Assembly (NCBI GenBank): GCA_963650805.1 | Contig: CAVJMG010000001.1 | Coordinates: 334,554-398,553, forward strand | Length of the DNA: 64,000 nucleotides | Direction: 5' to 3' | DNA from: an uncultured Bacteroidales bacterium | GTDB lineage: Bacteria > Bacillota_I > Bacilli_A > RFN20 > CAG-826 | Shown here: positions 40,056 to 59,493 of the stretch, one piece after another | Layout of the letters: each line of letters opens with the position of its first letter | Numbering within the stretch: the first letter of the stretch is position 1 | Position numbers and translations under genes: made by a program | Notes under the pieces: generated by a model | What the model saw: the letters and a program-made list of their open reading frames with translations, nothing else | What the model was told of the DNA's origin: nothing | The model's database searches: none

Positions 40056-41381
40056 TTAGTTTCGCAGCAAGGCCAGAGGAACGACATAAACCCCATCCTC
40101 ACGTCGATAGGCGAATTTGCCCTTGGTAACAACCATCAAAAAGGCCGGGCTCTCTTTTTCTTGTTTTATGTCTTGGGAGAGTTTGACGAGCTTTTCGCAA
40201 GCTAGGTTTATGTCTTCTTCGTCCCCGAGCTTAATTTCAATTAACGCCCATTCCCCATCGTTGAATACGATGACGGCATCCGCTTCCCGGTCGTAGGAAT
40301 CCCTATAATGGTATATTTTGGCGCCTATGGAATCGGCGTAGACACGCAGGTCGCGAATGGCCAAAGACTCAAACAAGAAGCCGAATGTCCTCATGTCACG
40401 GAAAAGCGAATCCGGGGTTAGCCCCAGACAAGCCGTCGCAATCGAAGGATCGACGAAATAATGGGTGGGCTTGCTTCTGACCGCGGATTTGCTGCGAAGG
40501 TTGGTGTTCCATGCCTCCATTTCCTCAATAACGTAAAGCTTCCGCAAAGACAAAAGATATTTGGAGAAGGTCTCTCCGTCGATGGAGCAATATTCAGAAA
40601 GGTCCTTAAGGAGTTCCTTCTCCGCCGATTGTCCCCCGATGTGACGGGAATAGGAGCGCATAACCGCACGGGATTTCTGGGAATCCTGACGCAGAGGAAC
40701 GCTCTTTAACGAAAAAACGTCATCTTCGACCAGGCCCTCGTAGAAGTCGATTGCCTGTTGCAAAGCAACGGAGGAGTCTTCGCCAACGGATGTCGGCCAT
40801 CCGCCGCGACAAATATAAGAAGCATAATCTTCAATCGTCGCTTTCGAGATCGATGGGGTGAATGTCCCCGCCTTCAAGCCCGCAAGCGAGACCGTGCCTA
40901 GACTATCCCGGCTCTCAAAAAGCGACATTGTGCGCATTCTTTTGCGCACGATTCTCCCGGTCCCCGTATGCGTTTCATCCGCGCCGTCGCCCTTATTCGC
41001 GTCCAAGGCGTCGGTGACGCTCCCGGTCAAAATATATTGGCCGAATTCATCGTTTTCATCGATCGCGCTTTTTAGATCATCCCAAATGAAGGAGACAATC
41101 TGCCATTCGTCGATAAGGATGGGTTTTGGCCCGTAATTGAGAAAGTGCTGAATCGCGTTTTTGGCGAGCGCGACATATTCCTTGCGCGTTGAGCGAGGAA
41201 GCATGTTGATGGTTGTCGCCGCAAAACGCTCCGCGGTTCTAGATTTGCCACACCACTTAGGCCCCACAACCAAAACTGCCCCTTTGCTTTTAAGGGCAAA
41301 CTCCAATGTTTGGTCAAACAAGCGAGGGATATAGTCTTTTTTCATACATATGATTTTATGTGTGTCTATCAATGTTTTCAA
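40056..41381 (-). CDS. AAA+ ATPase with C-terminal DUF4143
   Basis: Walker A VLVVGPKWCGKSRTAE. 441 aa. Close paralogue of 50946..52226. Confidence 0.8.
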   Translation of the reverse strand: MKTLIDTHKIICMKKDYIPRLFDQTLEFALKSKGAVLVVGPKWCGKSRTAERFAATTINMLPRSTRKEYVALAKNAIQHFLNYGPKPILIDEWQIVSFIWDDLKSAIDENDEFGQYILTGSVTDALDANKGDGADETHTGTGRIVRKRMRTMSLFESRDSLGTVSLAGLKAGTFTPSISKATIEDYASYICRGGWPTSVGEDSSVALQQAIDFYEGLVEDDVFSLKSVPLRQDSQKSRAVMRSYSRHIGGQSAEKELLKDLSEYCSIDGETFSKYLLSLRKLYVIEEMEAWNTNLRSKSAVRSKPTHYFVDPSIATACLGLTPDSLFRDMRTFGFLFESLAIRDLRVYADSIGAKIYHYRDSYDREADAVIVFNDGEWALIEIKLGDEEDINLACEKLVKLSQDIKQEKESPAFLMVVTKGKFAYRREDGVYVVPLALLRN

Positions 41382-41394
41382 TGTTAAATCCTTC

Positions 41395-41457
41395 GTTTGT
41401 AGGTTTTTAAATCATTTGTTTGTAGGTTTTTAAATCCGATGTTTGTAGGATTTGCAG
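41395..41457. repeat. Two perfect copies plus one degenerate copy of gtttgtaggtttttaaatc at a 23-bp period
   Basis: Read directly, immediately upstream of the ATPase start. Confidence 0.8.
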
Positions 41458-41844
41458 GCATTAAATCGAAACTAAAGCCGCCCAAAAAGGGATGCTGAAA
41501 CGCATCAACGAGGATCGAACTAGGCTTCCAAGAATGTCTACTTTCCCCTCATGTTCTTGATTAATAATGGGTTATAGCCTTCCGCTCGATAGCCCAACGG
41601 AAAAGGTCCGTAAATCCTACATAAAACAACATTTGTCGCCGCTGTTGGAAGTTTAAGACAAAATGTTGCGTTTTCAACGTTGATTCCCAACACATTGACG
41701 CGGTGGGATTTTTCTAGGTGTCTATCCTTATTAAATAGAGGCCGAAAGAAAATCGGGCATTAAAATTAACCTTTGACAACCTAAAGGCTAATAGCCTAGT
41801 CTTATGTTTGATAACCAAAATTTTCCGCCTAACGGAGACAAATT

Positions 41845-42789
41845 ATGGAAAACACAGAACCTAAAATCCTATGCCGCTTGATCGCAGGAAAAGAGGCCGC
41901 CTCGCCTTTTGCAGAGGAAGCCCTCGCCTTTTTCCAAGAGGGAATGAGGCCTTTCTGCCACCAGTATTTCGCGGGGCTCATCCCCAACGCGAAGAAGGAA
42001 GAGATTGAAAGCGCGGCCTACGAGGCCTTCAAGAAGCTCGGGGAAACCTATTTGGGGCTCCGCAAAAAGGATTTTGACGCGTATGTCGAAGAGCATAAGG
42101 AAGAACATGATTCTGCTTTAAGCTCTTCTTTTTTCGCCTCATTCGAGGATCCTGAGCTCGCCTATAGGCTCTCGCTTCTTTCTGCCAACTACACCCTCTA
42201 TACCCGCATGGGAGACCAAGCTTTGATCGTGGACCTCGAATCCAATGTCCCCCTCTCCTATATAAAGGAGGAAGAGCCTATTGTCCTCCCCGAAGAAAAA
42301 GAAGAGGAGCCGGTTAAAGAAGAAGAACCCAAAGAAGAACCTCAGGAAGAGCCCAAGGAAGAGGGACCCGAGGAGGCTGAAGAAAGCGAGGAAGAGGCCG
42401 AAGAGGAGGAAAACCCCTTCGCTAACATCAAACGCCGCACCTTCTCCGAGAAGCTCAAGAAAGCCTCCCCTGAACTCAGGAAGAACTACAAAGCCATCAA
42501 GCAGGCGGCCATCGACTGCAAGCTTAAGGGTCGCGTCTCCAAAGCCGCGGACACCTATCACCTCGGCAGGAAGACCTATCTCAAAATCACCATCGCGGGC
42601 AAAACGCTCAAATGCTATTTCGCCGTCGACGCGAAGAACTACGCCGATACGGCGATCCCCTTGGAAGTCTCCGACAAGAAGGCTTATCAAGACACCCCCA
42701 CTTTGCTCCGCGTGAAGAGCTCCTTAGCTGTTAGGCGCGCGATCTCCATCATCTCCGACATGACCGCCGAGCCGAAGGAGAACGAATGA
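41845..42789 (+). CDS. Hypothetical cytoplasmic protein with a central acidic (E/P/K-rich) low-complexity linker; first gene of the TasA/SipW operon
   Basis: RBS ggagacaaattATG. No signal peptide. …EEEPVKEEEPKEEPQEEPKEEGPEEAEESEEEAEEEE…. 4-nt overlap with the next gene. Confidence 0.6.
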   Translation: MENTEPKILCRLIAGKEAASPFAEEALAFFQEGMRPFCHQYFAGLIPNAKKEEIESAAYEAFKKLGETYLGLRKKDFDAYVEEHKEEHDSALSSSFFASFEDPELAYRLSLLSANYTLYTRMGDQALIVDLESNVPLSYIKEEEPIVLPEEKEEEPVKEEEPKEEPQEEPKEEGPEEAEESEEEAEEEENPFANIKRRTFSEKLKKASPELRKNYKAIKQAAIDCKLKGRVSKAADTYHLGRKTYLKITIAGKTLKCYFAVDAKNYADTAIPLEVSDKKAYQDTPTLLRVKSSLAVRRAISIISDMTAEPKENE

Positions 42790-43289
42790 TCAAGAAAGGC
42801 GTTATCATAACCCTTTTCGCCCTGTCCGGGGTCGTTTTAGGCGCAACCGCCGCCATACCCGTTTGCTATGCCTTAAACGAGCAGTATCAAAACGTCGCCT
42901 CCTCGCAAAGTGACGGAAACGTCATGGTCAAGGACGAAGAGGTCCACCTCTCCACCGACGAGAACCCCCTGTTCCCCGGAGATAAGAGAACGCTGACGAT
43001 CGATCTCAAGCAAACGATTGAGAAGAGCAACAAAGTCAGCGTCTACTTCGATAAGTACTCAGGGCAGGGTTACGAATACCTCTCGCTGTCCATCAAAGAC
43101 GAGGAGCAGACCTATATGCCTGATGCCCTCATCGAAAGCGCGACGAGCGAGTCCCCTTGGGAATTCTCCATGAAGGTAGGCAAGCAAAGCGGCCTGAGCT
43201 TCGTCTACACCTTAAGCAAAGACGTCCCAAGCACTTACGAGGACCTCGCCTTCTCGTTCACGATGCATCTAAGGGTCAATTGGAGATAA
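42786..43289 (+). CDS. Membrane-anchored or secreted accessory protein (possible TapA-like partner)
   Basis: N-terminal MIKKGVIITLFALSGVVLGATAAIPVCYALNEQ hydrophobic segment with a SipW-cognate-like …YALN… motif. About 140-aa extracytoplasmic domain. Confidence 0.5.
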   Translation: MIKKGVIITLFALSGVVLGATAAIPVCYALNEQYQNVASSQSDGNVMVKDEEVHLSTDENPLFPGDKRTLTIDLKQTIEKSNKVSVYFDKYSGQGYEYLSLSIKDEEQTYMPDALIESATSESPWEFSMKVGKQSGLSFVYTLSKDVPSTYEDLAFSFTMHLRVNWR

Positions 43290-43302
43290 AGGAGAAACAC
43301 TC

Positions 43303-43575
43303 ATGCTCGTATTAATCATCTGCATCTGCGTCTTAGGCTTAGCGGTGTCGGGGTATCTGACCTACGCCGGCATCGACTCGCTCATCAAAAACAAAAATGA
43401 GCCAAAGCCGGTGACGATGACGCCAAAACCCAGTTTATATCGAGTGAGGGCATACCCATTCGTTTATAAAGGAGAAGACAGCCAAAAGCCCGAAGGTCTC
43501 TTCTCCGCTTCCATCCTTCACAAAGACGAGGGGAAGCAAAAAGAAACCGAAGAGGGCTTAGAAGAAAGGAGGTAA
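43303..43575 (+). CDS. Small membrane protein (one N-terminal transmembrane helix)
   Basis: MLVLIICICVLGLAVSGYLTYAG…. Tightly packed between operon genes. Confidence 0.4.
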   Translation: MLVLIICICVLGLAVSGYLTYAGIDSLIKNKNEPKPVTMTPKPSLYRVRAYPFVYKGEDSQKPEGLFSASILHKDEGKQKETEEGLEERR

Positions 43576-43578
43576 CAA

Positions 43579-44202
43579 ATGAAAAGCACGCACATCAAAG
43601 CATTGCTCATCGCTTCAGGCGTTGCCGCGCTAGCTTTAGGCGGAACAGTCGCAGGAACGTTCGCCTTGTTCCAAAGGAACACCCAAGTGGTGACCCACGT
43701 CAAGGTCGGGAACCTCAACTTCAAGTTCAGCCGCACCAACCTCAAGTACAAAGCGCTCAGCGATAGCACGGGCTACCTCGAAGAGAAGGAAGACAAGACC
43801 GTCGTCGACTTAAGCGAAGACGGATCGAAGGCCTTCGATCTCGCTAGCTTAGCCCCGGGCAGCGAAGTGGCGTCCACCTTCGAGCTCGAGAACATCGGGG
43901 GAACCGCCTTCAAGACGAGCCTCGACCTTCTTAACGTCGAGATCAAGAAGGATGGGGTGACCGCGACCTCGGTCGATTGGCTCCAGTACGTTTCCGTCTC
44001 CTTGATCGAAGGGGAGAAGAAAACAGACTTCACCTTAAAAGACCTCAAGACAGTCAGCCTAATCGATTTGCCGAAGGGGCAGAAGACAAACTTCGTCATG
44101 AAGCTGTCCTTCGACGCCGAGCACATCGAAAACGAAGCGCAGGACCATGACCTCAGCTTCGCGATAAGGCTCAGCTGCACCCAACTCTTAACCCAAGCCT
44201 AA
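43579..44202 (+). CDS. TasA/camelysin-family secreted protein with a SipW-cognate signal peptide (paralogue 1)
   Basis: …ALALGGTVAGTFALFQRNT…, then …LAPGSEVASTFELENIGGTA…, which parallels TasA (GTWAAF…, NLKPGDKLTKDFQFENNGSL). RBS ggaggtaacaaATG. Confidence 0.75.
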   Translation: MKSTHIKALLIASGVAALALGGTVAGTFALFQRNTQVVTHVKVGNLNFKFSRTNLKYKALSDSTGYLEEKEDKTVVDLSEDGSKAFDLASLAPGSEVASTFELENIGGTAFKTSLDLLNVEIKKDGVTATSVDWLQYVSVSLIEGEKKTDFTLKDLKTVSLIDLPKGQKTNFVMKLSFDAEHIENEAQDHDLSFAIRLSCTQLLTQA

Positions 44203-44214
44203 TCGGAGCAAACC

Positions 44215-44775
44215 ATGAAAAAGAACAAAGTCTTAATGGCCTCCACCATCGTCGCCTTATTGGCCGCCAGCGGAGCGGTCGCCGGAAGCTACGCCTACTT
44301 CAGCGCTTCCAAAGACGCCCCCGCCACGGTCAAGATGGCCAAAGTCGACCTCGAGGTCTCCATCAAAGAAAATTCCCTAGAGCTCTACTCCATGGACAAG
44401 AAGCAAGAGGGAAGCAAATTCGAAAACGGCGGAGAAGCCAAATTCACCACGATCACCCTTAATGGAACGTCGGTGAAAGCATTGTCCCTAGACCGCGTAT
44501 CCCCCGGGGATGCGGTGAAATTCAATTTGGGGATAAACAACCTCTCCAACATCGCCGTCGCCTACAAAATCAGCATCGCCTTAGCCGACGCCACGGAAGA
44601 TTGCCCCTTCACCCTCACCGGGGAAGTGGCCGATTGGCAGAAGATCGCCGCCGCGGAAGCAATTCCCGACAAGCCCGTCTCCATATCCTTCCCCAAGGAA
44701 AAGGAGAACGAGTATCAGGATAAATCCTATACCATCCTGATCAACGTCAACGCGATCCAGGCTAACGCCGTCTGA
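44215..44775 (+). CDS. TasA/camelysin-family secreted protein (paralogue 2)
   Basis: …LLAASGAVAGSYAYFSAS… and …VSPGDAVKFNLGINNLSNIA…. C-terminal …AIQANA motif shared with the other paralogues. Confidence 0.75.
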   Translation: MKKNKVLMASTIVALLAASGAVAGSYAYFSASKDAPATVKMAKVDLEVSIKENSLELYSMDKKQEGSKFENGGEAKFTTITLNGTSVKALSLDRVSPGDAVKFNLGINNLSNIAVAYKISIALADATEDCPFTLTGEVADWQKIAAAEAIPDKPVSISFPKEKENEYQDKSYTILINVNAIQANAV

Positions 44776-44801
44776 TTCGAAAATCCTTAGAAAGGTAAAA
44801 T

Positions 44802-46199
44802 ATGAAACTTACAAAAAAAATCACGAAAACCCTGATCCTCTCCGGCGCGACAGCCCTTGCCTTCGGCACCGTTGCAGCGGGCACCACCTACGCTTTATTC
44901 ACCTCCAACGCGGAGAGTGAAGTCGTCGTCACCTCCGGTAAGGTCAGCGTGACTTCCGAAATCAAGGTCAAAGAGAAGTATCGCCCCGCTTTGATCAGCC
45001 AAGAAGAAGGGAACGAGATCGTTGAATCCAGCAACATCGCCGAAACCTCCGACCTCGAAGTCAGCGTCGAAAACAACAACGTCAAAATCGCCAAGATGCT
45101 CCCTGGCGACAAAGTGACCCTCACCGTCACCCCGAAGAACGAGAGCAACGTGAAGATCAAATATCGCGAAACCTATTCCTTCATCGGAGACGTCGCTAGC
45201 GACCTCAAAATCACCGGCGACGAAAAGATGGTCAAGCTTTGGACCGAACTCGGCGTCGGAGAAGCCATCGAGGCTTATGACATCGTCGTTGAGCTCCCCA
45301 CCACCGCCGTGGGCGAAATCGAAGAAACCACCATTAAACTAGGCATCGAAGCCGTCCAGGGCAACGCCCAAGTGGTTGACGAAGTCGTCAAAACGGAAAA
45401 AGAGCTTCAAGACGCAATCGACGCTCTGAAAACTTCCACCGACAAAAACCTCAGCGTCACCCTCTCCGAGGACCTTGCCCTAACCGCTCCCTTGGAAGTC
45501 AACGGGAACGTCACCATTTACGGAACCACCAAAGAAGATGGTAGCAAGACCAAAATCACCGCCCCTTCTGATGGCGCTGAGAATCAGCGCAGCATAACCG
45601 TTAACGACAACACCGATCCGGTCTCCTTGACTCTTGTTGGCATCGATGTCGAGGGGCCGACCACAGGCTCTGAAACTCGCGGCATATCGCTCGCAGCGAA
45701 CAAAGACCTCACCCTCATCATGGACGATTGCAGCATCTCAACGAATTACTATGCGCTGAATCTTGCGTCTGGAAACGAAAAAGCCAACATTTACATCCGC
45801 AACAGCACCTTAAAGGGTTGGGCCGCCGTGAACGTATGGTCACCAAACAACATCAGCAAAGCGGTTTTCGAAAACTGCACCCTGATTGGTGATAGCATCT
45901 CAAGGGAGGTCTTCCCCACCATCAGCTTGTACGAATGTGATAACAGCGAATTCACTTTCAAAGGCTGCACTATCAAAGCAAACGAACTTGGAACCAGCAA
46001 AGACGACATCAAACAGTTATTCTTCTACAGCGACGCAAAAAACAGCAAAGTCACTTTCAGTGATTGCAGTTTCTACAAAACATTCACAGATATCGGAGAA
46101 ATTCAATTATCAGGCTCCGAAGCTGCAAGTTTGATGTACGCGTCCGAATCCAGTTCTACGACAATCATCGACGGCGTTTCCTACGTTTACGAAGATTAA
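44802..46199 (+). CDS. TasA-like N-terminal domain fused to a C-terminal parallel β-helix-like passenger domain (paralogue 3)
   Basis: AAGTTYALFTSNAES signal and …MLPGDKVTLTVTPKNESNV…. The C-terminal 270 aa have repeated N/D/G-C-T/S-I/L/F turns (NCTLIGD, GCTIKAN, DCSFYK). Confidence 0.7.
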   Translation: MKLTKKITKTLILSGATALAFGTVAAGTTYALFTSNAESEVVVTSGKVSVTSEIKVKEKYRPALISQEEGNEIVESSNIAETSDLEVSVENNNVKIAKMLPGDKVTLTVTPKNESNVKIKYRETYSFIGDVASDLKITGDEKMVKLWTELGVGEAIEAYDIVVELPTTAVGEIEETTIKLGIEAVQGNAQVVDEVVKTEKELQDAIDALKTSTDKNLSVTLSEDLALTAPLEVNGNVTIYGTTKEDGSKTKITAPSDGAENQRSITVNDNTDPVSLTLVGIDVEGPTTGSETRGISLAANKDLTLIMDDCSISTNYYALNLASGNEKANIYIRNSTLKGWAAVNVWSPNNISKAVFENCTLIGDSISREVFPTISLYECDNSEFTFKGCTIKANELGTSKDDIKQLFFYSDAKNSKVTFSDCSFYKTFTDIGEIQLSGSEAASLMYASESSSTTIIDGVSYVYED

Positions 46200-46227
46200 A
46201 TAGCCGCTAGGCTAAAAAGGAGTTTCT

Positions 46228-48426
46228 ATGAAACTTACAAAAAAAATGACGAAAGGACTGATCCTCTCCGCTTCCGCGGCCCTGGCATTCGGGGCCGTGG
46301 CGGCCGGGACGACCTATGCCTTATTCACCTCTAACGCGGAGAATTCCGTGAGCGTCAGCTCCGGTAAGATCTCCTTGAAAAGCGAAATCCTCAATCTCAA
46401 GCTCTATTCCTTAAGCGAAGAGACTGGCGAGATCGTTCCTCTTGAAAGCGAAGATACCTTCACCCTTGGAGGCACCGCGACTATTGATGGAACCACCCTC
46501 AAGCTCGACAAAGTCGTTCCTGGCGACAAAGTCGAATTCGAGATCAAGGTCACCAACGAGTCCAACGTCGACATCAAGTTCCGCGAAGTGTTCAAGACCG
46601 TCAAAGATACCGGCCTTGGCAGCGGGCTTGAATACACGATCGACGAAGAGACCTACGATGGCGGAACCATCATCACCGACTATGAGCTTTGGGAAGCCAA
46701 GGCTGCGGAGCAAGAAAAGACCGTCAAGGTCTCCATCGCTCTCCCCAAGAGCGCCGAGAACATCTATCAGGAGAAATCCTGCGAGCTCTCCTTCAATTTC
46801 GAGGCCATCCAGAAGAACGCGAAGACGGAAGACGTCGATTCTACCGTTTATCAGATCTACACGCCGACCGATTTAAGCGCCTTCGCTAATAAGGTCAGCG
46901 CCGGAACCTTCACCTGCGATAAGGTCATCTTGATGGATGACATCGATATGGATGGACTTAGCTACATGTCACCGATGTACGCTAGGGAAAATACCGCTAT
47001 CGAATTCGATGGAAACGGCAAAACCATCAAGAACCTCGTCGCTCTCGAAAACAGCGATAAATCCGGCAACCGCGGAGCTGGCTTATTCGGAAAAGTGGGA
47101 CACGGAAGCCTAAACATCCATAATCTCAATATGGAGAACGTCACCGTTTCCGGCAGCTTCACCGTCGAGGGCGATCAGCACTTAGGCGGAGGGGCTATCG
47201 TCGGAACGAGTGACAGCGGCGTAAGCGCCATTGACATCACCAACGTTTCGGTCACTGGCGTTAGCGTCAAAGGCGTTAAGTACGCCGGCGGAATCGTTGG
47301 ATACAGCTCCATTGGCGGAACAGATACGATTAAAAACGTGACCGTCAAAGATGCTGAAATTTCCGGTTACACAGCCGGTGGCGTCATCGGCCAAGTCGGC
47401 GGCGGAAAAGCCGTCATCAATGGAGTCGAAGGCAGCGGCATCGTTGTTGATGGATATAAGAGAGAGGGCGGAATGGTTGGTGCAAATTCCGGTACAAGTC
47501 TCACCATCACCTACGACGAAGCCGAATACTCCTCCTCCATTTCCGGAGAGGCCTTTGGCAACAGAGGAACCATCGTCGGGCTCACCGGGGACACCACCGT
47601 CAACGGCAATCAATACCACACCGCTATCAGCACCGATCAAGTCAAAGGGATTAAGGCCGCTTCGGACAAGCTCAACATCGTCGAAATCTTTGAAGGCACG
47701 TACTCCTTCGGTGGAGCAACTAACCTCCAAAGCGTCAAAGGCGGCGTTGAAGTCCGCGGCATTGGCGACAAAACCAAGATCAAATGGATGCAAGCTGGCG
47801 GAACAGATGTGGGATATGGGTTCTCCGGCACGAATCTGACGATGAAAAACGTCAGCGTCGGAACCGAAGTCACCGGCAACTATCTCGGTTTCCCCGGCGC
47901 CGCTTCCGTTTCGTTCGAAGACTGCGTCTTCAATGTCACCAAAGCCAACGAATCCTTCCGTTACTGGGGCGATGGGGCCGTCAACTTCAAAAATTGCAAG
48001 TTCGATAGCACCAAAGCCGAAGACAGCAACATGTTCACCTACGGCGGCAAGAGCTTCTACTTCGAAGGCTGCGAATTCATCAGCGACGAAGCCGCGATCA
48101 AGCTATATAGAAACGCTAGTCTGACCGACAGCGTCGAAGTGCCCGTCACCATCACCGGCTGCACGTTCAAAAACGTTCATGAAGGCACATGGAGCGATAG
48201 CGATCTGCCGAAGAGGACCGTCCTCAGCATCGATACCGATAATGCCGCCGATAAGACCCACTACAAGGTCACGATGACCAATTCTAGCTACAGCGGCAAC
48301 TACTCCGACGGCATCCTCGCCGACAGGAAAGGCTTGTTTGGAGTCAGGCAACAGGACAAAGTCAAGAAGAGCCTAATCACCTTCACCCTTGACGGAACCA
48401 CGCTCGACTTGGGCCTACCTGAGTAA
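46228..48426 (+). CDS. TasA-like N-terminal domain + GLUG-motif repeat region + β-helix-like C-terminal domain (paralogue 4, 732 aa)
   Basis: The N-terminus is near-identical to paralogue 3. The mid-region has repeated AGGIVGYS, GGVIGQVGGG and GGMVGANSG units (GLUG-type). The C-terminus has DCVFNV, NCKFDS, GCEFIS and GCTFKN turns. Confidence 0.7.
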   Translation: MKLTKKMTKGLILSASAALAFGAVAAGTTYALFTSNAENSVSVSSGKISLKSEILNLKLYSLSEETGEIVPLESEDTFTLGGTATIDGTTLKLDKVVPGDKVEFEIKVTNESNVDIKFREVFKTVKDTGLGSGLEYTIDEETYDGGTIITDYELWEAKAAEQEKTVKVSIALPKSAENIYQEKSCELSFNFEAIQKNAKTEDVDSTVYQIYTPTDLSAFANKVSAGTFTCDKVILMDDIDMDGLSYMSPMYARENTAIEFDGNGKTIKNLVALENSDKSGNRGAGLFGKVGHGSLNIHNLNMENVTVSGSFTVEGDQHLGGGAIVGTSDSGVSAIDITNVSVTGVSVKGVKYAGGIVGYSSIGGTDTIKNVTVKDAEISGYTAGGVIGQVGGGKAVINGVEGSGIVVDGYKREGGMVGANSGTSLTITYDEAEYSSSISGEAFGNRGTIVGLTGDTTVNGNQYHTAISTDQVKGIKAASDKLNIVEIFEGTYSFGGATNLQSVKGGVEVRGIGDKTKIKWMQAGGTDVGYGFSGTNLTMKNVSVGTEVTGNYLGFPGAASVSFEDCVFNVTKANESFRYWGDGAVNFKNCKFDSTKAEDSNMFTYGGKSFYFEGCEFISDEAAIKLYRNASLTDSVEVPVTITGCTFKNVHEGTWSDSDLPKRTVLSIDTDNAADKTHYKVTMTNSSYSGNYSDGILADRKGLFGVRQQDKVKKSLITFTLDGTTLDLGLPE

Positions 48427-48446
48427 TCTAAACTCTACATCTTAGA

Positions 48447-48482
48447 CACAGGGGGCTATAATAAAGTCCCCCTGTGTTTTCT
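48447..48482 (+). terminator. Stem-loop (10-bp stem acacaggggg/ccccctgtgt) plus T-tract between the structural genes and sipW; possible partial terminator or attenuator
   Basis: acacagggggctataataaagtccccctgtgttttct read directly. Confidence 0.4.
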
Positions 48483-48486
48483 AACT

Positions 48487-49239
48487 ATGGAACAAGACAA
48501 AGAAGCAAATAGCAACAAAGGCAAAAGAAAAGTAGCCAAAATCATTGGAAACTCCGTTTTCTACACCATTCTTGGCCTGCTTACCGTTTTCGCCGCATTT
48601 TCGATTACCTCTAGGATTACCGGAGGTAGGATTGGCGATAGCCAGTATCTTGTCGTCATCTCCGGATCAATGGATGGCGAAAGGCAAGAAGAATATCCCA
48701 TCAAGACCATTCCGGTGAAATCCCTCATCAAGGTGGATTTGATCAAAGACGGCGAAGAGAAGGAATTCTATTCTTCCCTTAAGAAGGGGGACGTTTTGAC
48801 GTTTAACTACGCTTCTTTGAATAACGTGACCATCACCCACAGAATCATCGAGGATCCGTTGCTATTAAGCGATGGAACCACCTATCAAATTAAACTCAAA
48901 GGGGACGCGGTCGAGGGGAATGAGATTCAAACCCTTTATAGCGATGGCAGAACCGGAGAGGTCATCGGCAAAGTCTCCTTCGTGTCCTTGCCCTTAGGAC
49001 AGATGTACTTCTTCATGTCGAGCAAGATGGGAACCCTGGTATTGGTAATCCTCCCCTGCAGCGCGGTCTGCATCTACGAGATCGCCAAAATCGTTTACAT
49101 CCTCTCAGAGAACAAACGGAAAAAGAAGGAAGAGGCCGCTCAGGCAGTCACTTCAAGCAAGGACAAAGAGATCGAGGAGCTCAAAGCCAAGCTCGAGGCG
49201 ATGCAAAAGCAAAGCCAAGAAGAAAAGAAAGAGGAGTGA
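48487..49239 (+). CDS. sipW: Signal peptidase I of the SipW (archaeal/ER, S26B) type, with a charged coiled-coil C-terminal tail
   Basis: VVISGSMDGE (catalytic Ser box) and GDVLTFNYASLNNVTITHRIIEDP (His box), compared with B. subtilis SipW SGSMEP / …VTHRIV…. N- and C-terminal transmembrane helices. The tail is …KRKKKEEAAQAVTSSKDKEIEELKAKLEAMQKQSQEEKKEE. Confidence 0.8.
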   Translation: MEQDKEANSNKGKRKVAKIIGNSVFYTILGLLTVFAAFSITSRITGGRIGDSQYLVVISGSMDGERQEEYPIKTIPVKSLIKVDLIKDGEEKEFYSSLKKGDVLTFNYASLNNVTITHRIIEDPLLLSDGTTYQIKLKGDAVEGNEIQTLYSDGRTGEVIGKVSFVSLPLGQMYFFMSSKMGTLVLVILPCSAVCIYEIAKIVYILSENKRKKKEEAAQAVTSSKDKEIEELKAKLEAMQKQSQEEKKEE

Positions 49240-50663: not shown

Positions 50664-50945
50664 ATAATCCGCGTTGCACTCCTCAACGAATAATGGTGTT
50701 TCACAAAACCCAAAACATCAATATAATCGTGCCACTATCGTGCCACTTTTTAGCGGCACGATTGGTGGCACATTCATTTTGCGGATTGGCCAATAACGTC
50801 GTTAGACGGATATTCTCCGCCAATTTCGAAAAAGCGCATTTGGTTTGCGTCCATTTCAGCCAACCCGAAAACGTTCGTTGCTCAAGGCAGTCTTAAACAA
50901 AACGGCGTTTCACCCAGATTCGGCACAACATAACGGATTGCCCTG

Positions 50946-52226
50946 TCAGTTCTTCAAGCAAGCAAGCGGGACAACCCAAACGCCGTCTTCCCTTTGATAG
51001 GCGTATTCCGTCGCGGTGATGACCATAAGGAACTCGGGCTTCTTCATTCTTTGATCATCAATCAAAGAAGCCAAGCGGAGCAGGTTTTTCGCTCCTTCTT
51101 CAATGCGGTCTTGATCGTGCAATTTAATTTCGAACGCGGCCCATTTGCCGTTATAAAGATGAATCACGGCATCGGCTTCAAGCCCGTTTCTATCGCGATA
51201 ATGGTAAACCTCGCCACCGAGGGTATCGGCGTATATCTTCAAGTCCCTCACGGCCAGATCTTCGAAAACTAAGCCAAACGTGTTCAAATCATTAATCAGA
51301 TCTTCTTTATAAGCTCCCAAGGCCCGGCAAGCAATGGAGGGGTCCACGAAATGCCTTGTCGGGGAAGTTCTTATGGTCGTTTTGCTTCTTAGATTCGGGC
51401 ACCAAGCTTTTATGTCATCTATCACGTACAATTTCTCGAAGGCCTTGATATAGGACTTAACGGTCTCATCGCTGATGAGCTTTTGGTTGCCGCCATTGAT
51501 GTCCGAAAGTATGGTTTCAACGCTGCATTCGGTCGATACGTTGCGGGCGTAGGAGCGCAAGAACAATTTGACTTTATCAATATCTCTAGAAACGTTATCG
51601 ACGCTTCTTATATCGTTTTCGACCAAGCCGTCATAATAGTTCTTCGCAATTTCCATCGACACCTTTTCGCTTTGCCCAACCGATTTTGGCCAACCGCCTC
51701 GGCAACAATAAAAAGCGTAATCGAGCAGTTTCTTATCGCTAAAGGCAGGATTCACCTTTTCATTTCGAAAAAGAGAGGCAAGGGATATTTGCCCGTTGCT
51801 ATCAAGCGACTCATAAAGGCTCATAGGGCGCATAACCAAAGAAGAAATCCGCCCTACTCCGCTATGCTGCTTTTGCTTTTCTTCTTCATCCATTAATGGA
51901 GTTGCGCTTCCAGTCAGGATGAATTGCCCAAATTCATCCCGTTTATCAATCTCATATCGAATATCGTCCCAAATAAACGGAACAATTTGCCATTCGTCGA
52001 TCAGTCTCGGCGTATCGCCGGATAAAAAGAATTCAGGGGCGTTTTTTGCCAAAGCTATATTTTGGTCCCTGTCTTTCCGATTCTGCATATAAACAGAGCT
52101 CTTCGCGATGCGCTCTGCGGTCGTTGATTTCCCACACCATTTGGGACCCTTTATCCAAACCGCCCCAGAACTCTCTAACTTTTCTTTCAGCAGCGTATCC
52201 GCGCATCTATTCAAATATTGCTTCAT
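50946..52226 (-). CDS. AAA+ ATPase with DUF4143
   Basis: VWIKGPKWCGKSTTAE Walker A. The C-terminus …VVPLACLKN is paralogous to 40056..41381. Confidence 0.8.
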   Translation of the reverse strand: MKQYLNRCADTLLKEKLESSGAVWIKGPKWCGKSTTAERIAKSSVYMQNRKDRDQNIALAKNAPEFFLSGDTPRLIDEWQIVPFIWDDIRYEIDKRDEFGQFILTGSATPLMDEEEKQKQHSGVGRISSLVMRPMSLYESLDSNGQISLASLFRNEKVNPAFSDKKLLDYAFYCCRGGWPKSVGQSEKVSMEIAKNYYDGLVENDIRSVDNVSRDIDKVKLFLRSYARNVSTECSVETILSDINGGNQKLISDETVKSYIKAFEKLYVIDDIKAWCPNLRSKTTIRTSPTRHFVDPSIACRALGAYKEDLINDLNTFGLVFEDLAVRDLKIYADTLGGEVYHYRDRNGLEADAVIHLYNGKWAAFEIKLHDQDRIEEGAKNLLRLASLIDDQRMKKPEFLMVITATEYAYQREDGVWVVPLACLKN

Positions 52227-52257
52227 GGGTATTCCCTCAATTGAATTTTAGAATCTA

Positions 52258-52349
52258 TTTGGCAATTTGGCAACGTTTCATTTGGCAATTTGGCGGTGTT
52301 TCATTTGGCAATTTGGCGGTGTTTCATTTGGCAATTTGGCAATCTCTTA
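52258..52349. repeat. About 3.7 tandem copies of a 23-bp unit (tttggcaatttggcggtgtttca)
   Basis: Read directly, 30 bp upstream of the ATPase start. The core ttggcg…tttca resembles the 38608-38674 repeats. Confidence 0.9.
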
Positions 52350-52445
52350 GGCATAAGCAAAACTGCGACATGGCCATTAAGGGCGATAAAGGAGGGCAGA
52401 CGATGCCTTTACCATAAAAGGCAAAGGGAAGATAATACGAGGGAT

Positions 52446-53566: not shown

Positions 53567-54718
53567 ATGGATAAGAAAATCAAACTCATGACCATCTTAG
53601 GCACCCGGCCTGAGATCATCCGCTTGTCTGAGGTCATCAAAGCCTGCGACAGGGCCTTTGACCACGTTTTGGTGCATACGGGCCAGAATTACGATTACGA
53701 GCTCAATCAAATCTTCTTTGAGCAGCTTGGGCTTAGAAACCCCGATTATTACCTCAACGTCGTCGGCACAAACCTCGGGGAGACCATGGGCCAGGTGATT
53801 TCGAAATCCTATGATTTGATCGCGGAGGTCAAACCCGACGCGATCCTCATCTTAGGGGACACCAATAGCGCCCTTTCCGCTATTTCGGCCAAGCGCTTAA
53901 AATGTCCCATCTTCCATATGGAGGCGGGGAACCGCTGCTGGGACTGGAACGTCGCCGAAATGACGAACAGGACCATCGTCGACCACATCGCCGACATCAA
54001 TATGCCCTATAGCTATTTCGCCTACGGAAACCTCTTAAAAGAAGGCTGTTCCCCAAAGAATACTTTCATCACGGGCTCCCCGATGAAAGAGGTCATCTCC
54101 GCCCACATAAGCGAAATCTCCTCCTCAAGGATCCTAGAGGAAAGAGGACTTGAGAAAGGGCATTACATCGTCATGTCCGCCCATAGGGAAGAAAACGTGG
54201 ACATCAAAGAGAAATTCGACCGCCTCTATCCTAGCCTCAATCGCATCGCCGAGCACTTCAAGATGCCCGTGGTCTTCTCCGTCCACCCAAGGACGAGGAA
54301 ACGCTTCGAGGAAAAGGGATTCGTCTTATCGAGCTATATCCGCGAGGACAAGCCCTTCGGGTTCTTCGATTACTGCGCCCTCCAAAAAGGGGCCTACGTC
54401 GTCTTAAGCGACTCGGGGACGCTTTCGGAGGAGTCTTCCATTCTAGACTTCCCCGCCGTGCTCATCCGCACCTCCAGCGAACGCCAAGAGGCCAATAGGC
54501 ACGGCTCCATCGTTTTAGGGGGCGTGGACTACGAAACCATCTTGCCCGCGATAGAGCAAGCTAGGGAAATCCATCGCCCAGGCAATTCGTTACCCATCGT
54601 CTTAGACTACTCCAGTGAAGACGTGTCGAAGACAGTCGTCAACATCATCGAAAGCAATATCGATAGAATAAATAAAGAAACGTGGCTCAAAGGAGTAAGG
54701 GACGAAGCTCATTTATAA
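53567..54718 (+). CDS. capG: UDP-N-acetylglucosamine 2-epimerase (non-hydrolysing; Cap5G/WecB type)
   Basis: MDKKIKLMTILGTRPEIIRLSEVIKACD…HTGQNYDYELNQIFFEQLGL…. Confidence 0.85.
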   Translation: MDKKIKLMTILGTRPEIIRLSEVIKACDRAFDHVLVHTGQNYDYELNQIFFEQLGLRNPDYYLNVVGTNLGETMGQVISKSYDLIAEVKPDAILILGDTNSALSAISAKRLKCPIFHMEAGNRCWDWNVAEMTNRTIVDHIADINMPYSYFAYGNLLKEGCSPKNTFITGSPMKEVISAHISEISSSRILEERGLEKGHYIVMSAHREENVDIKEKFDRLYPSLNRIAEHFKMPVVFSVHPRTRKRFEEKGFVLSSYIREDKPFGFFDYCALQKGAYVVLSDSGTLSEESSILDFPAVLIRTSSERQEANRHGSIVLGGVDYETILPAIEQAREIHRPGNSLPIVLDYSSEDVSKTVVNIIESNIDRINKETWLKGVRDEAHL

Positions 54719-54871
54719 GGGTTTCTTAATCGCCCAATAGCCCGTCTTTCTAGAGCCGACCCTTTCGATCACGCCGCTTTTACTAAGGGCTTTGAGGCGC
54801 CGCGGTACCGTTGCTGTCGACTTTTTAGTCAAAGAAGCCATTTCTTTCGTGGTGATATATTTGTTTTCCAT
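54716..54871 (-). CDS. Possible small winged-HTH ORF (about 51 aa), resembling the C-terminal wHTH of the AlbA_2-type regulators
   Basis: MENKYITTKEMASLTKKSTATVPRRLKALSKSGVIERVGSRKTGYWAIKKPL. Three 12-bp direct repeats (54905-54946) lie upstream. Confidence 0.3.
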
Positions 54872-55044
54872 AATGGAGTCGATGAGGCTCTTATCGGAAG
54901 GGTTTATCCTATCGTTTATTCTGTCATTTATTCTATCATTTATTGTATCACAGACCTTTGGGAGTCACGTGCGGAGAAACCCAAAAAAACGGCAGCCACC
55001 ACTGCTTCGACAACCCTATAAACGTAGGAGGCAAAACTTAAAAG

Positions 55045-55082
55045 ATGTGTTACAAACTTGAAATTTTGTGAGTTTGTAACAC
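55045..55082. repeat. Palindromic element gtgttacaaact-N12-agtttgtaacac abutting the 3' end of the ATPase gene
   Basis: Perfect 12-bp arms. It would form a terminator-like hairpin on the minus-strand transcript. Confidence 0.7.
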
Positions 55083-56312
55083 TTATTTAACGTCGATATC
55101 GATTTTGCCTAACAGCCACTCTTCGATATTTATGTGCCTAATAGGCCCTTGGGACATGTCGAAGTCGTCCATGCTGAAAACGTATTTAGGCGAAGGATCC
55201 TTGATCGAATCAAACGCGGAGAATTCTCTTTTCGCGGTTTCTTCGTCCGCTAAAAGATAGGCGACTTGGATAAAGCACTTGCCTTCGTCTTTCATGGCGA
55301 CGAAATCGATCTCGCCCTTATACGTCTTGCCGATTTTCACGTTGTATCCACGGTAAATGAGTTCGTTGTATACGAGGTTTGCCAAAGCGTGGGACACGAA
55401 CAATTTATTCGATGAAGCACAAGCTAAAACTAGACCGTTATCCATCGCGTATTGTTTTTCAATCGATTTGAGGTTTCTTTTCGAGGCGATGTCATAACGT
55501 TTGACCCGGGAAATAAGGAAAGCCTCCTCGAGCTTTCTTAAATATCGATACACGGTCTCCCTGTATATGGTCTCTCGATTGCTTTTGTTGAAATACTCCA
55601 CGACGTTATCCGCAGAGAATTCCTTTGATGCGTTGGAAATGACGTAATCGGCGATGGCCCTGAAGGATTCTTTGTTTATCTTCGAGGATGGGGTGCAGAT
55701 ATCCCTTTGGATGATGCCTTCGTATAAAGAAATAAGATAGGCTTTGATGTCTTTCTCAAGGGAATAGTCCATTCTTTGGGGCATGCCGCCATAACGGAGG
55801 TAATTCTGCAAAGGCTTATCGGGGATCTCTATCCCATTAACTCGGTAATATTCCAAGAACTCCTTATAGGAAAAAGGCATGATTTTGAATTCTTTGCAGC
55901 GGCCCACCAGAAGGCTGGCGAGCCTTCCTGAAAGAAGGGTCGAATTGCTGCCGGTGACGAACAGCGAGACGTTTTGGGTGGCCTTAAGGGAGGCTAGGGT
56001 CTTTTCAAAAGAGCGCACATGTTGGATTTCATCCAAGAAAACATAGTATTTCTTCTCGTCTTTAATTTTCCCTAGGATATAGGTGTTCAGCTTTTGATGA
56101 GAATGAAGCGAGGAGAAGGAAAGGTCTTCGAGATTGATGGAGACAATATGCTCCTGATCGATTCCGCGTTCTTCTAGAAGCTCTTCTTTGATTTGATTCA
56201 GAAGGACGCTCTTGCCGCATCTACGGATCCCAGTCAAAACCTTGATGAGGTTAGAATCGTAGAACCTTCGAATCTCCGTCAAATATTGATTCCTTTTTAC
56301 GTCCATAAGCAT
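55083..56312 (-). CDS. AAA+ ATPase with DUF4143
   Basis: VLTGIRRCGKSVLLNQ Walker A. 409 aa. Confidence 0.8.
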   Translation of the reverse strand: MLMDVKRNQYLTEIRRFYDSNLIKVLTGIRRCGKSVLLNQIKEELLEERGIDQEHIVSINLEDLSFSSLHSHQKLNTYILGKIKDEKKYYVFLDEIQHVRSFEKTLASLKATQNVSLFVTGSNSTLLSGRLASLLVGRCKEFKIMPFSYKEFLEYYRVNGIEIPDKPLQNYLRYGGMPQRMDYSLEKDIKAYLISLYEGIIQRDICTPSSKINKESFRAIADYVISNASKEFSADNVVEYFNKSNRETIYRETVYRYLRKLEEAFLISRVKRYDIASKRNLKSIEKQYAMDNGLVLACASSNKLFVSHALANLVYNELIYRGYNVKIGKTYKGEIDFVAMKDEGKCFIQVAYLLADEETAKREFSAFDSIKDPSPKYVFSMDDFDMSQGPIRHINIEEWLLGKIDIDVK

Positions 56313-56348
56313 CCTTTCGTTGAGTTAATAATAACGGATGAAACAAAA

Positions 56349-56394
56349 ATATGTGTTACAAACTTCGAATCTTTTTGAGTTTGTAACACATATT
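56349..56394. repeat. Second copy of the same palindrome family (atatgtgttacaaact-N14-agtttgtaacacatat)
   Basis: Perfect 16-bp arms. It lies between the MATE 3' end and the ATPase 5' end. Confidence 0.7.
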
Positions 56395-56491
56395 TGAAAT
56401 CTCTTGTGTCTGATAAACTTGAAGGAATGGGCCTAAAAAATGTAGGGAAACACCAAAAAGAAGTGGTCCTGTACGCGATTTAACCAAAATA

Positions 56492-57895: not shown

Positions 57896-58002
57896 ATCTC
57901 CCTCCTATAGGCCAACACGGGATTATAAGGAAGGGTGGTGAAGTTGGCCATAAAAAGATTGCGTTTAACAATAGCTCCTAGCAATTCCATTAATAAGTTG
58001 GA

Positions 58003-58095
58003 ACTTTGCGGTTTACGGATATTTTCAACAAAAACTACTTTGCGGTTTTTATGGTTTTACTGAGAAATATACTTTGCGGTTTTTGGTTTTTATAG
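58003..58095. repeat. Three direct repeats (core actttgcggttttt) at a 34-bp period upstream of an ATPase gene
   Basis: Read directly. The array ends about 30 bp before the start codon. Confidence 0.75.
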
Positions 58096-58122
58096 CATAA
58101 TTTATACGAAGGAATCGAGATA

Positions 58123-59493
58123 ATGGAACTTAAAAGAAAGATATATTCAAAATTGTTGCAATGGAAGCAAGGGAAGACGAAGTCCGCGGTGATGATAGAA
58201 GGCGCTAGGCGCATCGGAAAATCAACGATTGCCAAGCGATTCGGCCAAGAAAACTACAAATCATTCGTTATCATTGATTTCGCTAAAGTCAACAAACGCA
58301 TCAAAGACAACTTCGACAACCTCGACAATCTCGATATTTTCTTCCAAAACATATCGCTTGAGTTCAATACCCGTCTCTACCCCCACGAATCGCTAATTAT
58401 ATTTGACGAAGTCCAAAAGTTCCCTAGAGCAAGGGAGGCCATTAAATATCTCGTTGAAGACGGAAGATATGACTTCATCGAAACGGGATCCCTGATTTCA
58501 ATCAAAGAAAGCACCGAGGGCATCCTCATTCCATCCGAGGAGCTGAAATTGAAAATGCATCCCCTCGATTTCGAGGAATTCCTTTGGGCTGCCGGAGAAG
58601 AGGTTCTCATTGATTACATTCTCGGCTGCATCAAATCCAAAACCTCTCTAGACGAAGATTATCATCGGAAGGCTATGCGCTTATTCAAAGAATATATGCT
58701 CGTAGGCGGCATGCCGCAAAGCGTGGTTGCCTATTTTGAAAATGGGCGCGACTTCTTTGAAGCCGATAAAGCGAAAAGGCTCATTCTTTCCCTTTACAAA
58801 GACGACATCGCGAAAGCCAACGCCAAATGCAGCATGAGGGTGTCCTCCCTTTTTGAAAACATCCCATCCTTCCTATCGAAGCACGAGAAAAGAATCACGT
58901 TCTCGACCCTTGAAGAAGGCGCGACTTCAAAGCAATACGCCGATCCTCTATTCTGGCTTGAAGACTCGATGATTTGCAACAACTGCTACAAATGCAATGA
59001 CCCAAACGTCGGCTTCTCGCTGAATAAAGACGATTCTCAAGTCAAATGCTATATGGGGGATACAGGATTGCTTTTAAGCCTCGCTTTCAATGAGAACAAA
59101 CTCCTCAGCGAAAACATCTACAAAGACATCATGAACGACAAACTGGCGATTAACCAAGGCATGCTTTATGAAAACGCGATTGCTCAGATGATCGTCTCTA
59201 TGGGGAGAAGGCTATATTTCTACAATCACTTTTCGCCCGAGAAAAAACGCAATGACATCGAAATCGACTTCCTCATTTCAAATAGCAACCAAACGCGGGC
59301 GAAGATTTACCCCATCGAAGTCAAATCGTCTAAAAATTACACCAACGTTTCCTTTGATAAATTCAGGGCCAAATTCAAAAGCCGCATCGACTTTGGCTAC
59401 ATTGTTCACCCAAAGCCCTTCTGTTTGGGCGAAGGCGTGATTAAAGCGCCTCCGTATATGTTTTATTTCATGCTAAAAGATGAGCGAACTTAA
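58123..59493 (+). CDS. AAA+ ATPase with DUF4143
   Basis: VMIEGARRIGKSTIAKRFG Walker A. 456 aa. Confidence 0.8.
   Translation: MELKRKIYSKLLQWKQGKTKSAVMIEGARRIGKSTIAKRFGQENYKSFVIIDFAKVNKRIKDNFDNLDNLDIFFQNISLEFNTRLYPHESLIIFDEVQKFPRAREAIKYLVEDGRYDFIETGSLISIKESTEGILIPSEELKLKMHPLDFEEFLWAAGEEVLIDYILGCIKSKTSLDEDYHRKAMRLFKEYMLVGGMPQSVVAYFENGRDFFEADKAKRLILSLYKDDIAKANAKCSMRVSSLFENIPSFLSKHEKRITFSTLEEGATSKQYADPLFWLEDSMICNNCYKCNDPNVGFSLNKDDSQVKCYMGDTGLLLSLAFNENKLLSENIYKDIMNDKLAINQGMLYENAIAQMIVSMGRRLYFYNHFSPEKKRNDIEIDFLISNSNQTRAKIYPIEVKSSKNYTNVSFDKFRAKFKSRIDFGYIVHPKPFCLGEGVIKAPPYMFYFMLKDERT

Follow-up and report, generated by a model that had tools for sequence, protein, structure and literature searches.

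Why should ATPase genes of one family be preceded by short tandem direct repeats, and what would read such repeats? The question is posed by a 64-kb stretch of contig CAVJMG010000001.1 (referred to here, over its whole length, as the window), from an uncultured Bacilli-type organism; it is similar, though not identical, to the metagenome-assembled genome GCA_963633445.1. A preliminary description of this DNA reported four paralogous DUF4143 AAA+ ATPase genes within 20 kb, three of them with direct-repeat arrays immediately 5′, and suggested that the repeats were iterons or multi-site operators in a conserved repeat-plus-ATPase module. We propose that each DUF4143 gene and its upstream repeats constitute a self-contained, transferable cassette, the product of which would bind its own repeats and autoregulate. 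Judged from sequence, we put the probability of this reading at about 60%.

The four paralogues were given working names, W1 to W4, in coordinate order:

40056..41345, minus strand: W1 ATPase (Pfam, PADLOC); Walker A GPKWCGKS, Walker B LIDEWQ, D...E-I-K intact
50946..52226, minus strand: W2 ATPase (Pfam, AlphaFold2, Foldseek, conservation); E350, D352, E366, K368
55083..56312, minus strand: W3 ATPase (Pfam, PADLOC, subfamily consensus); Q-V-A replaces the nuclease E-x-K
58123..59493, plus strand: W4 ATPase (Pfam, PADLOC); D...E-V-K intact

AAA_14 and DUF4143 (Pfam PF13173, PF13635) are found in that order, above gathering thresholds, in all four open reading frames (ORFs), and all four match the PADLOC PDC-S01 hidden Markov models strongly, with E-values of 7.6e-53 (W1), 3.1e-65 (W2), 1.6e-130 (W3), and 6.2e-105 (W4). 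The count of four DUF4143 AAA+ paralogues thus holds. Walker A (GxxxxGKS) and the DE of Walker B are invariant across W1–W4, and the D...E-x-K of the PD-(D/E)XK motif is kept in W1, W2, and W4. Walker A occupies protein residues 27–34; its earlier placement near residue 40 was true only of an over-extended first ORF. Indeed, the W1 start is most likely the ATG at 41345 (MKKDYIPR...) rather than the TTG at 41381, and the 429-aa product was called identically and independently on another contig. An exact-protein look-up returned no record identical to W4. Since pairwise identity to W1 is only 48% for W2, 19% for W3, and 20% for W4, the four genes represent three subfamilies.

DUF4143 (COG1373) has been described as a PD-(D/E)XK family of unknown function (PMC3424549). 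The AAA_14–DUF4143 protein is also listed as PDC-S01, a candidate single-gene anti-phage system that is abundant and unvalidated; it is reported to rank fourth in frequency among candidate systems across prokaryotes and first among single loci in rumen genomes (PMC12988326, PMC13356809). In the literature on DUF4143 and PDC-S01, we found no mechanism, DNA target, or description of upstream repeats.

The arrays in front of three of the genes are as follows:

41380..41448, minus strand: W1 array, a weight-matrix chain of three 23-bp units, sense CTACAAAC.AAGGATTTAAAAAC, ending at the −35
52250..52341, minus strand: W2 array, a weight-matrix chain (score 84) of four 23-bp units, sense CGCCAAATTGCCAAATGAAACAC
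58003..58091, plus strand: W4 array, three 34-bp units with core ACTTTGCGGTTT

Tandem Repeats Finder (TRF) and a search for exact cores confirm all three. For W1, TRF gives a period of 23 at 41384–41453 (3.0 copies, score 105), in place of the three 19-bp cores first read at 41395–41457. For W2, the earlier figure of 3.7 copies of a 23-bp unit (52258–52349) agrees with TRF (52257–52343, period 23, 3.8 copies, score 139). For W4, the three repeats of period 34 described at 58003–58095 correspond to exact ACTTTGCGGTTT cores at 58003, 58037, and 58071, spaced 34 bp apart, where chance would give 0.5 matches per window. The W1 array is 100% identical on a second contig. The W2 array, which occupies a divergent intergenic region held in common with capsule-type genes at 52404+, is present on two other contigs with a small sequence variant in one unit, and one contig ends inside it. 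In addition, a 23-bp weight matrix, built from the arrays of other genomes with no window sequence included, finds exactly three chains of at least three units in the 64 kb (52250–52341, 41380–41448, and 38600–38668, all on the minus strand), compared with 0.15 such chains in shuffled windows; the third chain is an orphan considered below. A two-unit match at 23627–23672, weak and inside a coding ORF, was taken as chance. That the arrays are not CRISPR, as first stated, is also borne out: the 23-bp units are contiguous, without spacers, the 34-bp arrays have 3 copies with partly conserved DNA between the cores, and an Rfam scan of 36000–61000 found no RNA family match.

The association of repeats with the gene extends to hundreds of loci in three subfamilies. 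W1, W2, and their homologues were aligned, and the alignment was scanned against one genome per species, giving 80 loci with a protein identity of about 50% (two close relatives, 80%) from at least six phyla, with members in Bacillota, Bacteroidota, Spirochaetota, Pseudomonadota, Fibrobacterota, Actinomycetota (Eggerthellaceae), and Victivallis. TRF places an array no more than 300 bp upstream in 65 of these 80, with a period that is nearly always exactly 23. Period-23 arrays number 67 in the 23.4 kb of upstream windows and 6 in the other 789 kb, and several of those 6 either stand in front of a further paralogue or repeat the module's own unit in an additional array next to it. Repeats scattered at random, with no enrichment near DUF4143 genes, are therefore not what is seen. 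By a lag spectrum, which tolerates mismatches, the best self-similarity lag is 23 (or 22/46) in 71/78 W1/W2-type upstream regions and in 1/80 coding controls. For W4-type genes (a sample of 80 metagenomic loci), it is 33 or 34 in 67 of 77 upstream regions, against 1 of 69 downstream controls. Contigs classed as viral (IMG/VR; loci within L164–L274) contribute 31 W2-type loci, with arrays in 20/28, and 172 W3-like loci. A single-protein scan of these contigs with W3 gave no matches, and the alignment-based scan found relatives only 30–42% identical; direct repeats at a lag of 39–41 occur in 15 of 79 of these W3-like loci, and many have a palindrome instead. Assemblies break or gap inside arrays (a contig end in L003, a run of N in L080), so copy numbers from short-read assemblies are probably underestimates.

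When all 23-bp arrays are rotated to a common register, the unit consensus in gene orientation is cGCCAAat..cc[G/A]AA.[A/G]AAAw..., with C4, A5, A6, A14, A15, and A18 nearly invariant and positions 7–13, 16–17, and 21–23 variable. Units are 70–100% alike inside one array, and the differences between loci fall at the variable positions. Orientation is kept as well: chains of at least three units in the weight-matrix search comprise 60 forward-upstream, 1 reverse-upstream, and 4 elsewhere. W4-type units have the common core TTGCG[C/T]. The half-sites of the three subfamilies look related: W4-type loci have TTTGCGG (sense strand), W2-type loci have ATTTGGCG (antisense strand), and many W3-like loci have the palindrome GTTTTGCGG...CCGCAAAAC.

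Where do the arrays stand with respect to transcription? A promoter scan gives two promoter-like sites in the window:

41353..41381, minus strand: W1 promoter-like site, TTGAAA-17-TAAAAT, directly after the array; 10/12 matches in a promoter scan
52245..52273, minus strand: W2 promoter-like site, TTGCCA-17-TAAAAT, with the −35 inside the proximal unit; 10/12 matches in a promoter scan

Read by eye, the proximal core of W4 also looks like a promoter (TTGCGG-16-CATAAT). The −10 of W1 ends 7 nt 5′ of its ATG, so the transcript may be leaderless. Across loci in two phyla that differ in promoter grammar, the arrays overlap the stretch contacted by RNA polymerase or lie directly 5′ of it. At sigma70-type loci, the −35 hexamer begins 1–3 nt before the end of the last unit (18/25); at Bacteroidota-type loci, the −7 box TAnnTTTG begins 28–34 nt past the last unit (23/37), with a second class in which it begins at 7–10 nt, one unit out of register. 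The consensus unit core itself, TTGCGT or TTGCGC, stands as the −35 hexamer in 15 of 40 recognisable W4-type promoters, and 14 fit the core of their own locus at 5/6 or better. The sites thus overlap or abut the core promoter of the ATPase's own gene, as is expected of a self-operator. Since recognisable promoters lie downstream of the arrays, the arrays would be outside the mRNA.

Only the ATPase travels with the array; no conserved partner gene emerged, and co-regulated partners were rejected as an explanation, since the genes next to orphan or extra arrays are of unrelated housekeeping types. The AlphaFold2 model of W2 (predicted local distance difference test score 92, predicted template-modelling score 0.92) consists of an AAA+ module, a winged helix (residues about 216–295), and a C-terminal PD-(D/E)XK-fold domain with invariant E350, D352, E366, and K368. 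The winged helix has three helices, H216–228, H236–246, and H253–265, and a beta wing at about 268–293; the third helix, with the motif S252-D253-E254-T255, is the predicted recognition helix. The best solved Foldseek matches are the archaeal AAA+ proteins 2fna and 2qen, Orc1/Cdc6 on origin DNA (2qby), and STAND NTPases, and the PDB holds no relative of W2 at the sequence level.

It is here that the repeats and the protein can be compared directly. Unit consensus was paired with protein sequence for 89 W2-type loci. Mutual information peaks at residue 254, in the first turn of H253–265 (z = 11.5 versus unit position 13). This residue ranks first of 263 columns, with 252, 253, 257, 236, 240, and 272 near the top, and residues 206–295 hold 14 of the top 30 columns (Fisher p = 0.005). 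The helix motifs and unit bases 11–15 pair as follows:

S-D-E-T: CCAAA
x-[E/D]-D-T: CCGAA
x-E-E-T: CGGAA
x-x-K-T: AGGAA
D-[G/S]-T: CGCAT

As a control for ancestry, 44 non-overlapping nearest-neighbour pairs were formed on identity over the protein without its winged helix. A difference at residue 254 is accompanied by one at unit bases 11–13 in 17 of 19 pairs, and pairs alike at 254 differ at those bases in 5 of 25. Residue 254 is again first, of 292 columns (p = 4.4e-6; about 1e-3 after Bonferroni correction), followed by residues 244, 272, and 252, all in the winged helix. First-turn positions of this kind are those with which winged-helix recognition helices normally contact bases. The preliminary description had looked to the neighbouring AlbA_2 and winged helix-turn-helix (wHTH) regulators as binders; the covariation points instead to the ATPase's own winged helix.

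W3, counted at first as the gene without an array, is not bare. It is flanked by a pair of palindromes:

56346..56395, no strand: W3 upstream palindrome, AAATATGTGTTACAAACT-N13-AGTTTGTAACACATATTT, with 18-nt arms that are 100% complementary; kept in orthologues
55036..55093, no strand: W3 downstream palindrome, a second copy that abuts and overlaps the stop codon

The palindrome spans roughly 45 bp (GTGTTACAAACT-N12/13-AGTTTGTAACAC), and its upstream copy lies about 40–85 bp 5′ of the gene. A pattern search finds all four half-sites without mismatch and gives no further occurrence in the window. Orthologues that are 67–75% identical, in at least six contexts (among them guaA-hxlR, an ABC transporter, secE, a DDE transposase, and another DUF4143 gene), have the palindrome at both gene ends, as is seen at L275, L285, L290, L295, and L299. 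The two copies change together between orthologues, with GTGTTACAAACT in one and GTGCCCCGAATT in another: L285 has GTGCCCCGAATT-type arms at both ends, and L299 repeats one arm imperfection in both copies. Outside these orthologues, downstream copies are much less frequent, being found at 9/73 W3-like loci. The replacement of E-x-K by Q-V-A suggests that the W3 subfamily may be nuclease-dead, and it is this same subfamily that has the palindrome at both ends and no direct-repeat array.

When loci from different genomic contexts are compared by blastn, the limits of the module become visible: homology sets in at the array and is lost at the stop codon, in blocks that run, relative to the gene, from −89 to +3 (L004/L005) and from −111 to +8 (L038/L040). 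With arrays that cross phyla, array-to-stop homology blocks, and a fixed promoter register, the conserved repeat-plus-ATPase unit suspected from the window does behave as a module. Predicted self-binding through the winged helix would be the simplest account of array conservation, promoter register, module boundaries, covariation, and the W3 palindromes taken together. Additional arrays of matching unit near the cognate gene at L031, L070, L080, and L081 speak for it as well.

We suggest the following scheme. The winged helix would read one repeat unit, with residues 252–254 and 257 (W2 numbering) contacting bases 11–13/16. A period of 23 bp is about two helical turns and one of 34 bp about three; protomers on same-orientation units would therefore lie head-to-tail on roughly one face of the DNA, a geometry that would suit ATP-dependent cooperative assembly of an AAA+ protein. 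Since the array ends at, or supplies, the −35 (Bacillota) or −33 (Bacteroidota) element, its occupancy would act as a transcriptional input, controlling the ATPase's own gene. The mode of control is most likely cooperative negative feedback, which we favour because the proximal site overlaps or supplies the −35 at many loci and the product is potentially toxic; such feedback could hold an ATPase-nuclease at a set level in any host. Distinct units and architectures (23-bp array, 34-bp array, palindrome pair) may limit cross-talk between co-resident copies. Units are divergent in co-resident paralogues such as W1 and W2, or L027 and L054 of one Treponema genome; the tandem paralogues in L008 have similar units, so avoidance of cross-talk is not absolute.

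Several observations weigh against this proposal. No array is detectable at about 10–18% of loci. The amino-acid/base "code" has exceptions, such as L079 and L072, and in the W4 subfamily all columns covary highly and the helix start does not stand out; with an effective sample of 31, in which a few deep clades dominate, that test is uninformative. The homogeneity of units within an array could be explained by slippage or gene conversion rather than selection. Template-modelling (TM) scores of W2 against the 2qby chains are only 0.23–0.28 (Foldseek E = 3e-6 to 1e-5), and the global scores against Orc1/Cdc6 are low at 0.23–0.25, so the analogy with the Orc1/Cdc6 fold rests on domain architecture. 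A site abutting the −35 would be as compatible with activation as with repression. When one PDC-S01 representative was tested in E. coli, it did not protect against T4, T5, or T7 (preprint 10.1101/2024.09.26.614923). Finally, pure autoregulation does not explain orphan arrays beside ordinary genes (TenA, EamA), two-sided arrays and palindromes, or arrays of up to 11 copies (L051), which keep alive a role in mobility, recombination, or DNA-templated assembly.

It is tempting to go further and regard these proteins as sequence-programmable AAA+ nucleases. The pairing of residues 252–254 with bases 11–13 would be the programme, the array would serve as a head-to-tail template that holds the enzyme inactive, and tandem repeats of an invader, such as plasmid iterons or phage origins, would be attacked, or the cassette itself mobilised. 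We regard this as speculative and unlikely.

Somewhat less likely, in our view, is that the repeats are primarily the ends of a mobile cassette or recombination sites, acted on by some machinery, possibly the ATPase-nuclease itself, with orphan arrays as empty sites or footprints. The homology blocks do run from array start to stop codon, and W3, bracketed by one palindrome in at least six contexts, has what are effectively terminal inverted repeats. Extra arrays with the unit of the cognate ATPase lie directly downstream of it at L070:7296–7381 and L081:7300–7356; another lies 2 kb upstream, in front of tenA-eamA genes (L031:3713–3785), and another 100 bp upstream of the regular array, across an assembly gap (L080:1274–1409). 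Copy number varies as well, L027 and L036 having one common unit in 2.8 and 3.8 copies. The window itself contains two orphan arrays:

38600..38668, minus strand: orphan array of three 23-bp units, sense CGCCAACTTAGGGAATTAAAATG; TRF 38607–38675, score 117; weight-matrix score 41
38747..38826, plus strand: orphan 32–33-bp array with three exact GTTGGAAAAATGCAA cores, spaced 32–33 bp apart

The first fits the W1/W2-type matrix with no ATPase gene behind it, and the second resembles W4-type units such as TTGAAAAGCGTAT in L020; the two stand back-to-back. Genes beside orphan or extra arrays are of unrelated housekeeping types (TenA, EamA, hydrolase). Against a primary role in mobility, no target-site duplications were seen by eye at the W3 palindromes, and no recombinase was seen, though mobile-element genes were not searched for. 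Moreover, the W3 subfamily lacks the catalytic E-x-K, downstream copies are rare elsewhere (5/97 W2-type and 1/65 W4-type loci), and the fixed promoter register would be left unexplained. Movement is compatible with self-binding, and it may supplement that role instead of replacing it.

By the covariation "code", bases 11–15 of the 23-bp orphan unit, GGGAA, would fit a Lys at position 254; no protein in the window has it. An ATPase remnant beside the orphans was rejected, tblastn giving only weak matches (E ≥ 0.001) to the 577-nt target.

Could the arrays be iteron-type origins or partition sites? The ATPase would then be an initiator resembling Orc1/Cdc6 or Rep, or else a segregation protein; the array would serve it as origin or centromere and would mark an integrated element or a small replicon. 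Orc1/Cdc6 on origin DNA is among the structural matches, direct repeats of about 23 bp beside an initiator gene recall the geometry of plasmid iterons, the module crosses phyla and is present in IMG/VR viral contigs, and there are tandem direct repeats, in the range of about 17–23 bp usual for iterons, beside the gene of a predicted binder, binding being suggested by the covariation. Nevertheless, we consider this improbable. Four modules sit within 20 kb of one chromosome, with more elsewhere, and Pfam and PADLOC give no Rep-family match. The neighbours inspected are chromosomal, of housekeeping types, and vary by locus (guaA, hxlR, secE, capsule genes), mobile-element genes not having been searched for. 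No consistent helicase, integrase, or relaxase is evident at the few loci inspected, which is not a survey across loci. The array is locked to the promoter of its own gene in two phyla, and a nuclease-fold domain is unexpected in an initiator. Thus, of the two functions first suggested for the arrays, the multi-site operator is favoured by promoter register and covariation, whereas the replication-origin iteron fits poorly with chromosomal, multi-copy modules among varied neighbours.

More improbable still is that the arrays are generic promoter-enhancing DNA, curved and A-rich in the manner of UP elements, or sites for a host protein or for the AlbA_2/wHTH regulators, with the ATPase not binding at all. 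The sense strand of the units is rich in A, with patches of A at positions 5, 14, and 19, the arrays are placed where UP elements sit, and AlbA_2 and small wHTH genes are nearby in the window. Yet the motif is kept across phyla whose RNA polymerases use different promoter architectures, neighbouring genes are not conserved, and the unit covaries specifically with the recognition helix of the ATPase, not with the rest of the protein. Furthermore, the AlbA_2 gene has an upstream motif of its own, GTGCCAC × 4, which is different.

Functionless minisatellites or an RNA-level element (a 5′ untranslated region or a repeat-derived small RNA) would account for arrays that expand and contract, and a 23-nt minisatellite without known function, BrickBuilt, exists in Porphyromonas gingivalis (PMC4596501), but this is very improbable indeed given that period, orientation, motif, and promoter register are kept over about 50% protein divergence and several phyla, that the promoters downstream leave the arrays outside the mRNA, and that no Rfam family matches.

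How, then, does the proposed self-binding cassette compare with known systems? Orc1/Cdc6 and DnaA are built, as the W2 model predicts for the DUF4143 protein, from an AAA+ module followed by a winged helix or another DNA-binding domain, and, as with arrayed DnaA boxes, multiple same-orientation sites lie beside the gene of the protein itself. For these systems, autoregulation and ATP-dependent assembly in head-to-tail order are well known. W1–W4 differ from them in having no sequence-level relationship, an added PD-(D/E)XK domain, many paralogous modules per chromosome, and no origin context evident at the loci inspected; in addition, DnaA boxes are spaced by roughly 11 bp, as against periods of 23 and 34 bp in DUF4143 arrays. 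Plasmid iterons with Rep, and parC with ParR, also have direct repeats about two helical turns apart and directly 5′ of the gene. Such repeats are bound by the gene's own product, double as its autoregulatory operator, and diversify in specificity between co-resident systems. Unlike Rep or the ribbon-helix-helix proteins, the DUF4143 protein is an AAA+ ATPase-nuclease at a chromosomal locus, and no replication or partition partner genes are found at the loci inspected.

Activators of the MalT type (STAND) and the NtrC type (bacterial enhancer-binding proteins) offer a third comparison: they too are ATPases with a helix-turn-helix and have repeated sites upstream of, or abutting, the −35. They assemble cooperatively, as we propose for DUF4143, and STAND proteins are among the structural matches of W2. 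DUF4143 promoters are sigma70-like or Bacteroidota-type, unlike the sigma54 promoters of the NtrC type, and DUF4143 proteins have a nuclease domain and no sensor or receiver domains, their target being their own gene.

BrickBuilt deserves separate mention. This minisatellite/MITE (miniature inverted-repeat transposable element) of P. gingivalis is an intergenic, spacer-less tandem array of 23 nt with promoter activity and a strain-variable length (PMC4596501). The spacer-less period of 23 nt is common to it and the W1/W2-type arrays, but its unit, AGACCATAGTATCCTCTCATATG, does not fit the DUF4143-array motif, and its leader and tail segments, which carry IS5-like terminal repeats, have no counterpart in the arrays of the window. 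The pattern of those terminal repeats gave two poor matches in the window, far from the arrays and fewer than chance. None of its flanking genes in Table 1 is described as such an ATPase, and no association is reported (PMC4596501). A relationship was rejected, since the period is equal and unit and ends differ; a loose analogy is all that is left. An atypical 11-copy array of a 23-bp unit, GATTCTCTATATTTCATACAATA, upstream of a W2-type ATPase in a Sangeribacter genome (L051:1525–1776), is off the family motif and loosely like the BrickBuilt unit.

The family-wide association, the subfamily-specific architectures, the promoter register, and the covariation of recognition helix and unit appear to be new. 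A family reported to be among the most abundant uncharacterised ones in prokaryotic "defence" catalogues, without known ligand, target, or mechanism, now has predicted cognate DNA sites for individual members, a conserved architecture (23 bp, 34 bp, palindrome pair), and a candidate amino-acid/base recognition rule, and is thereby directly testable. A self-encoded regulator–operator pair placed 5′ of a host-type core promoter could explain how the cassette is controlled after transfer across phyla. Orphan arrays and gene-flanking copies may, in turn, bear on how the cassette moves.

The genes around the four modules include further repeats and candidate regulators. Downstream of W1, a DUF3990 protein and the small gene that follows it (38963–40034, minus strand) match components A and B of PADLOC PDC-M42, so the W1 module adjoins another candidate defence pair. 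Between W1 and W2, 41845–49239 (plus strand) contains a cluster of eight same-strand genes with a strong A-over-T skew, whose products either match nothing in Pfam or have only weak camelysin/TasA-like (Peptidase_M73) matches; an acidic, EEPK-type 12-bp coding repeat lies in the first of these genes, at 42322–42409. The AlbA_2 (Schlafen-type) regulator gene, which also encodes HATPase_c_4, lies at 49635–50663 (minus strand) and follows W2 on every contig seen. Its own upstream motif set, at 50726–50775, consists of ATCGTGCCAC twice in direct orientation and of GCGGCACGAT and GGTGGCAC inverted. At 54713–54871 (minus strand), a 52-aa winged-helix-like ORF (MENKYITTKEMASL...GVIERVGSRKTGYW) resembles a C-terminal DNA-binding end split off from an AlbA_2-type regulator, and it is preceded by four direct 12-bp repeats of TTTATTCTATCA (54903–54950). 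Lastly, a UDP-glucose/GDP-mannose dehydrogenase gene at 36990–38385 (minus strand) appears to carry an HTH_3 (XRE-type) segment fused in frame at its N terminus, which, if real, would be unusual. Just 5′ of its probable start (38385), TGCGCAA or TTGCGCAA, with a palindromic core, occurs three times within 38407–38464, at spacings of 28 and 23 bp.

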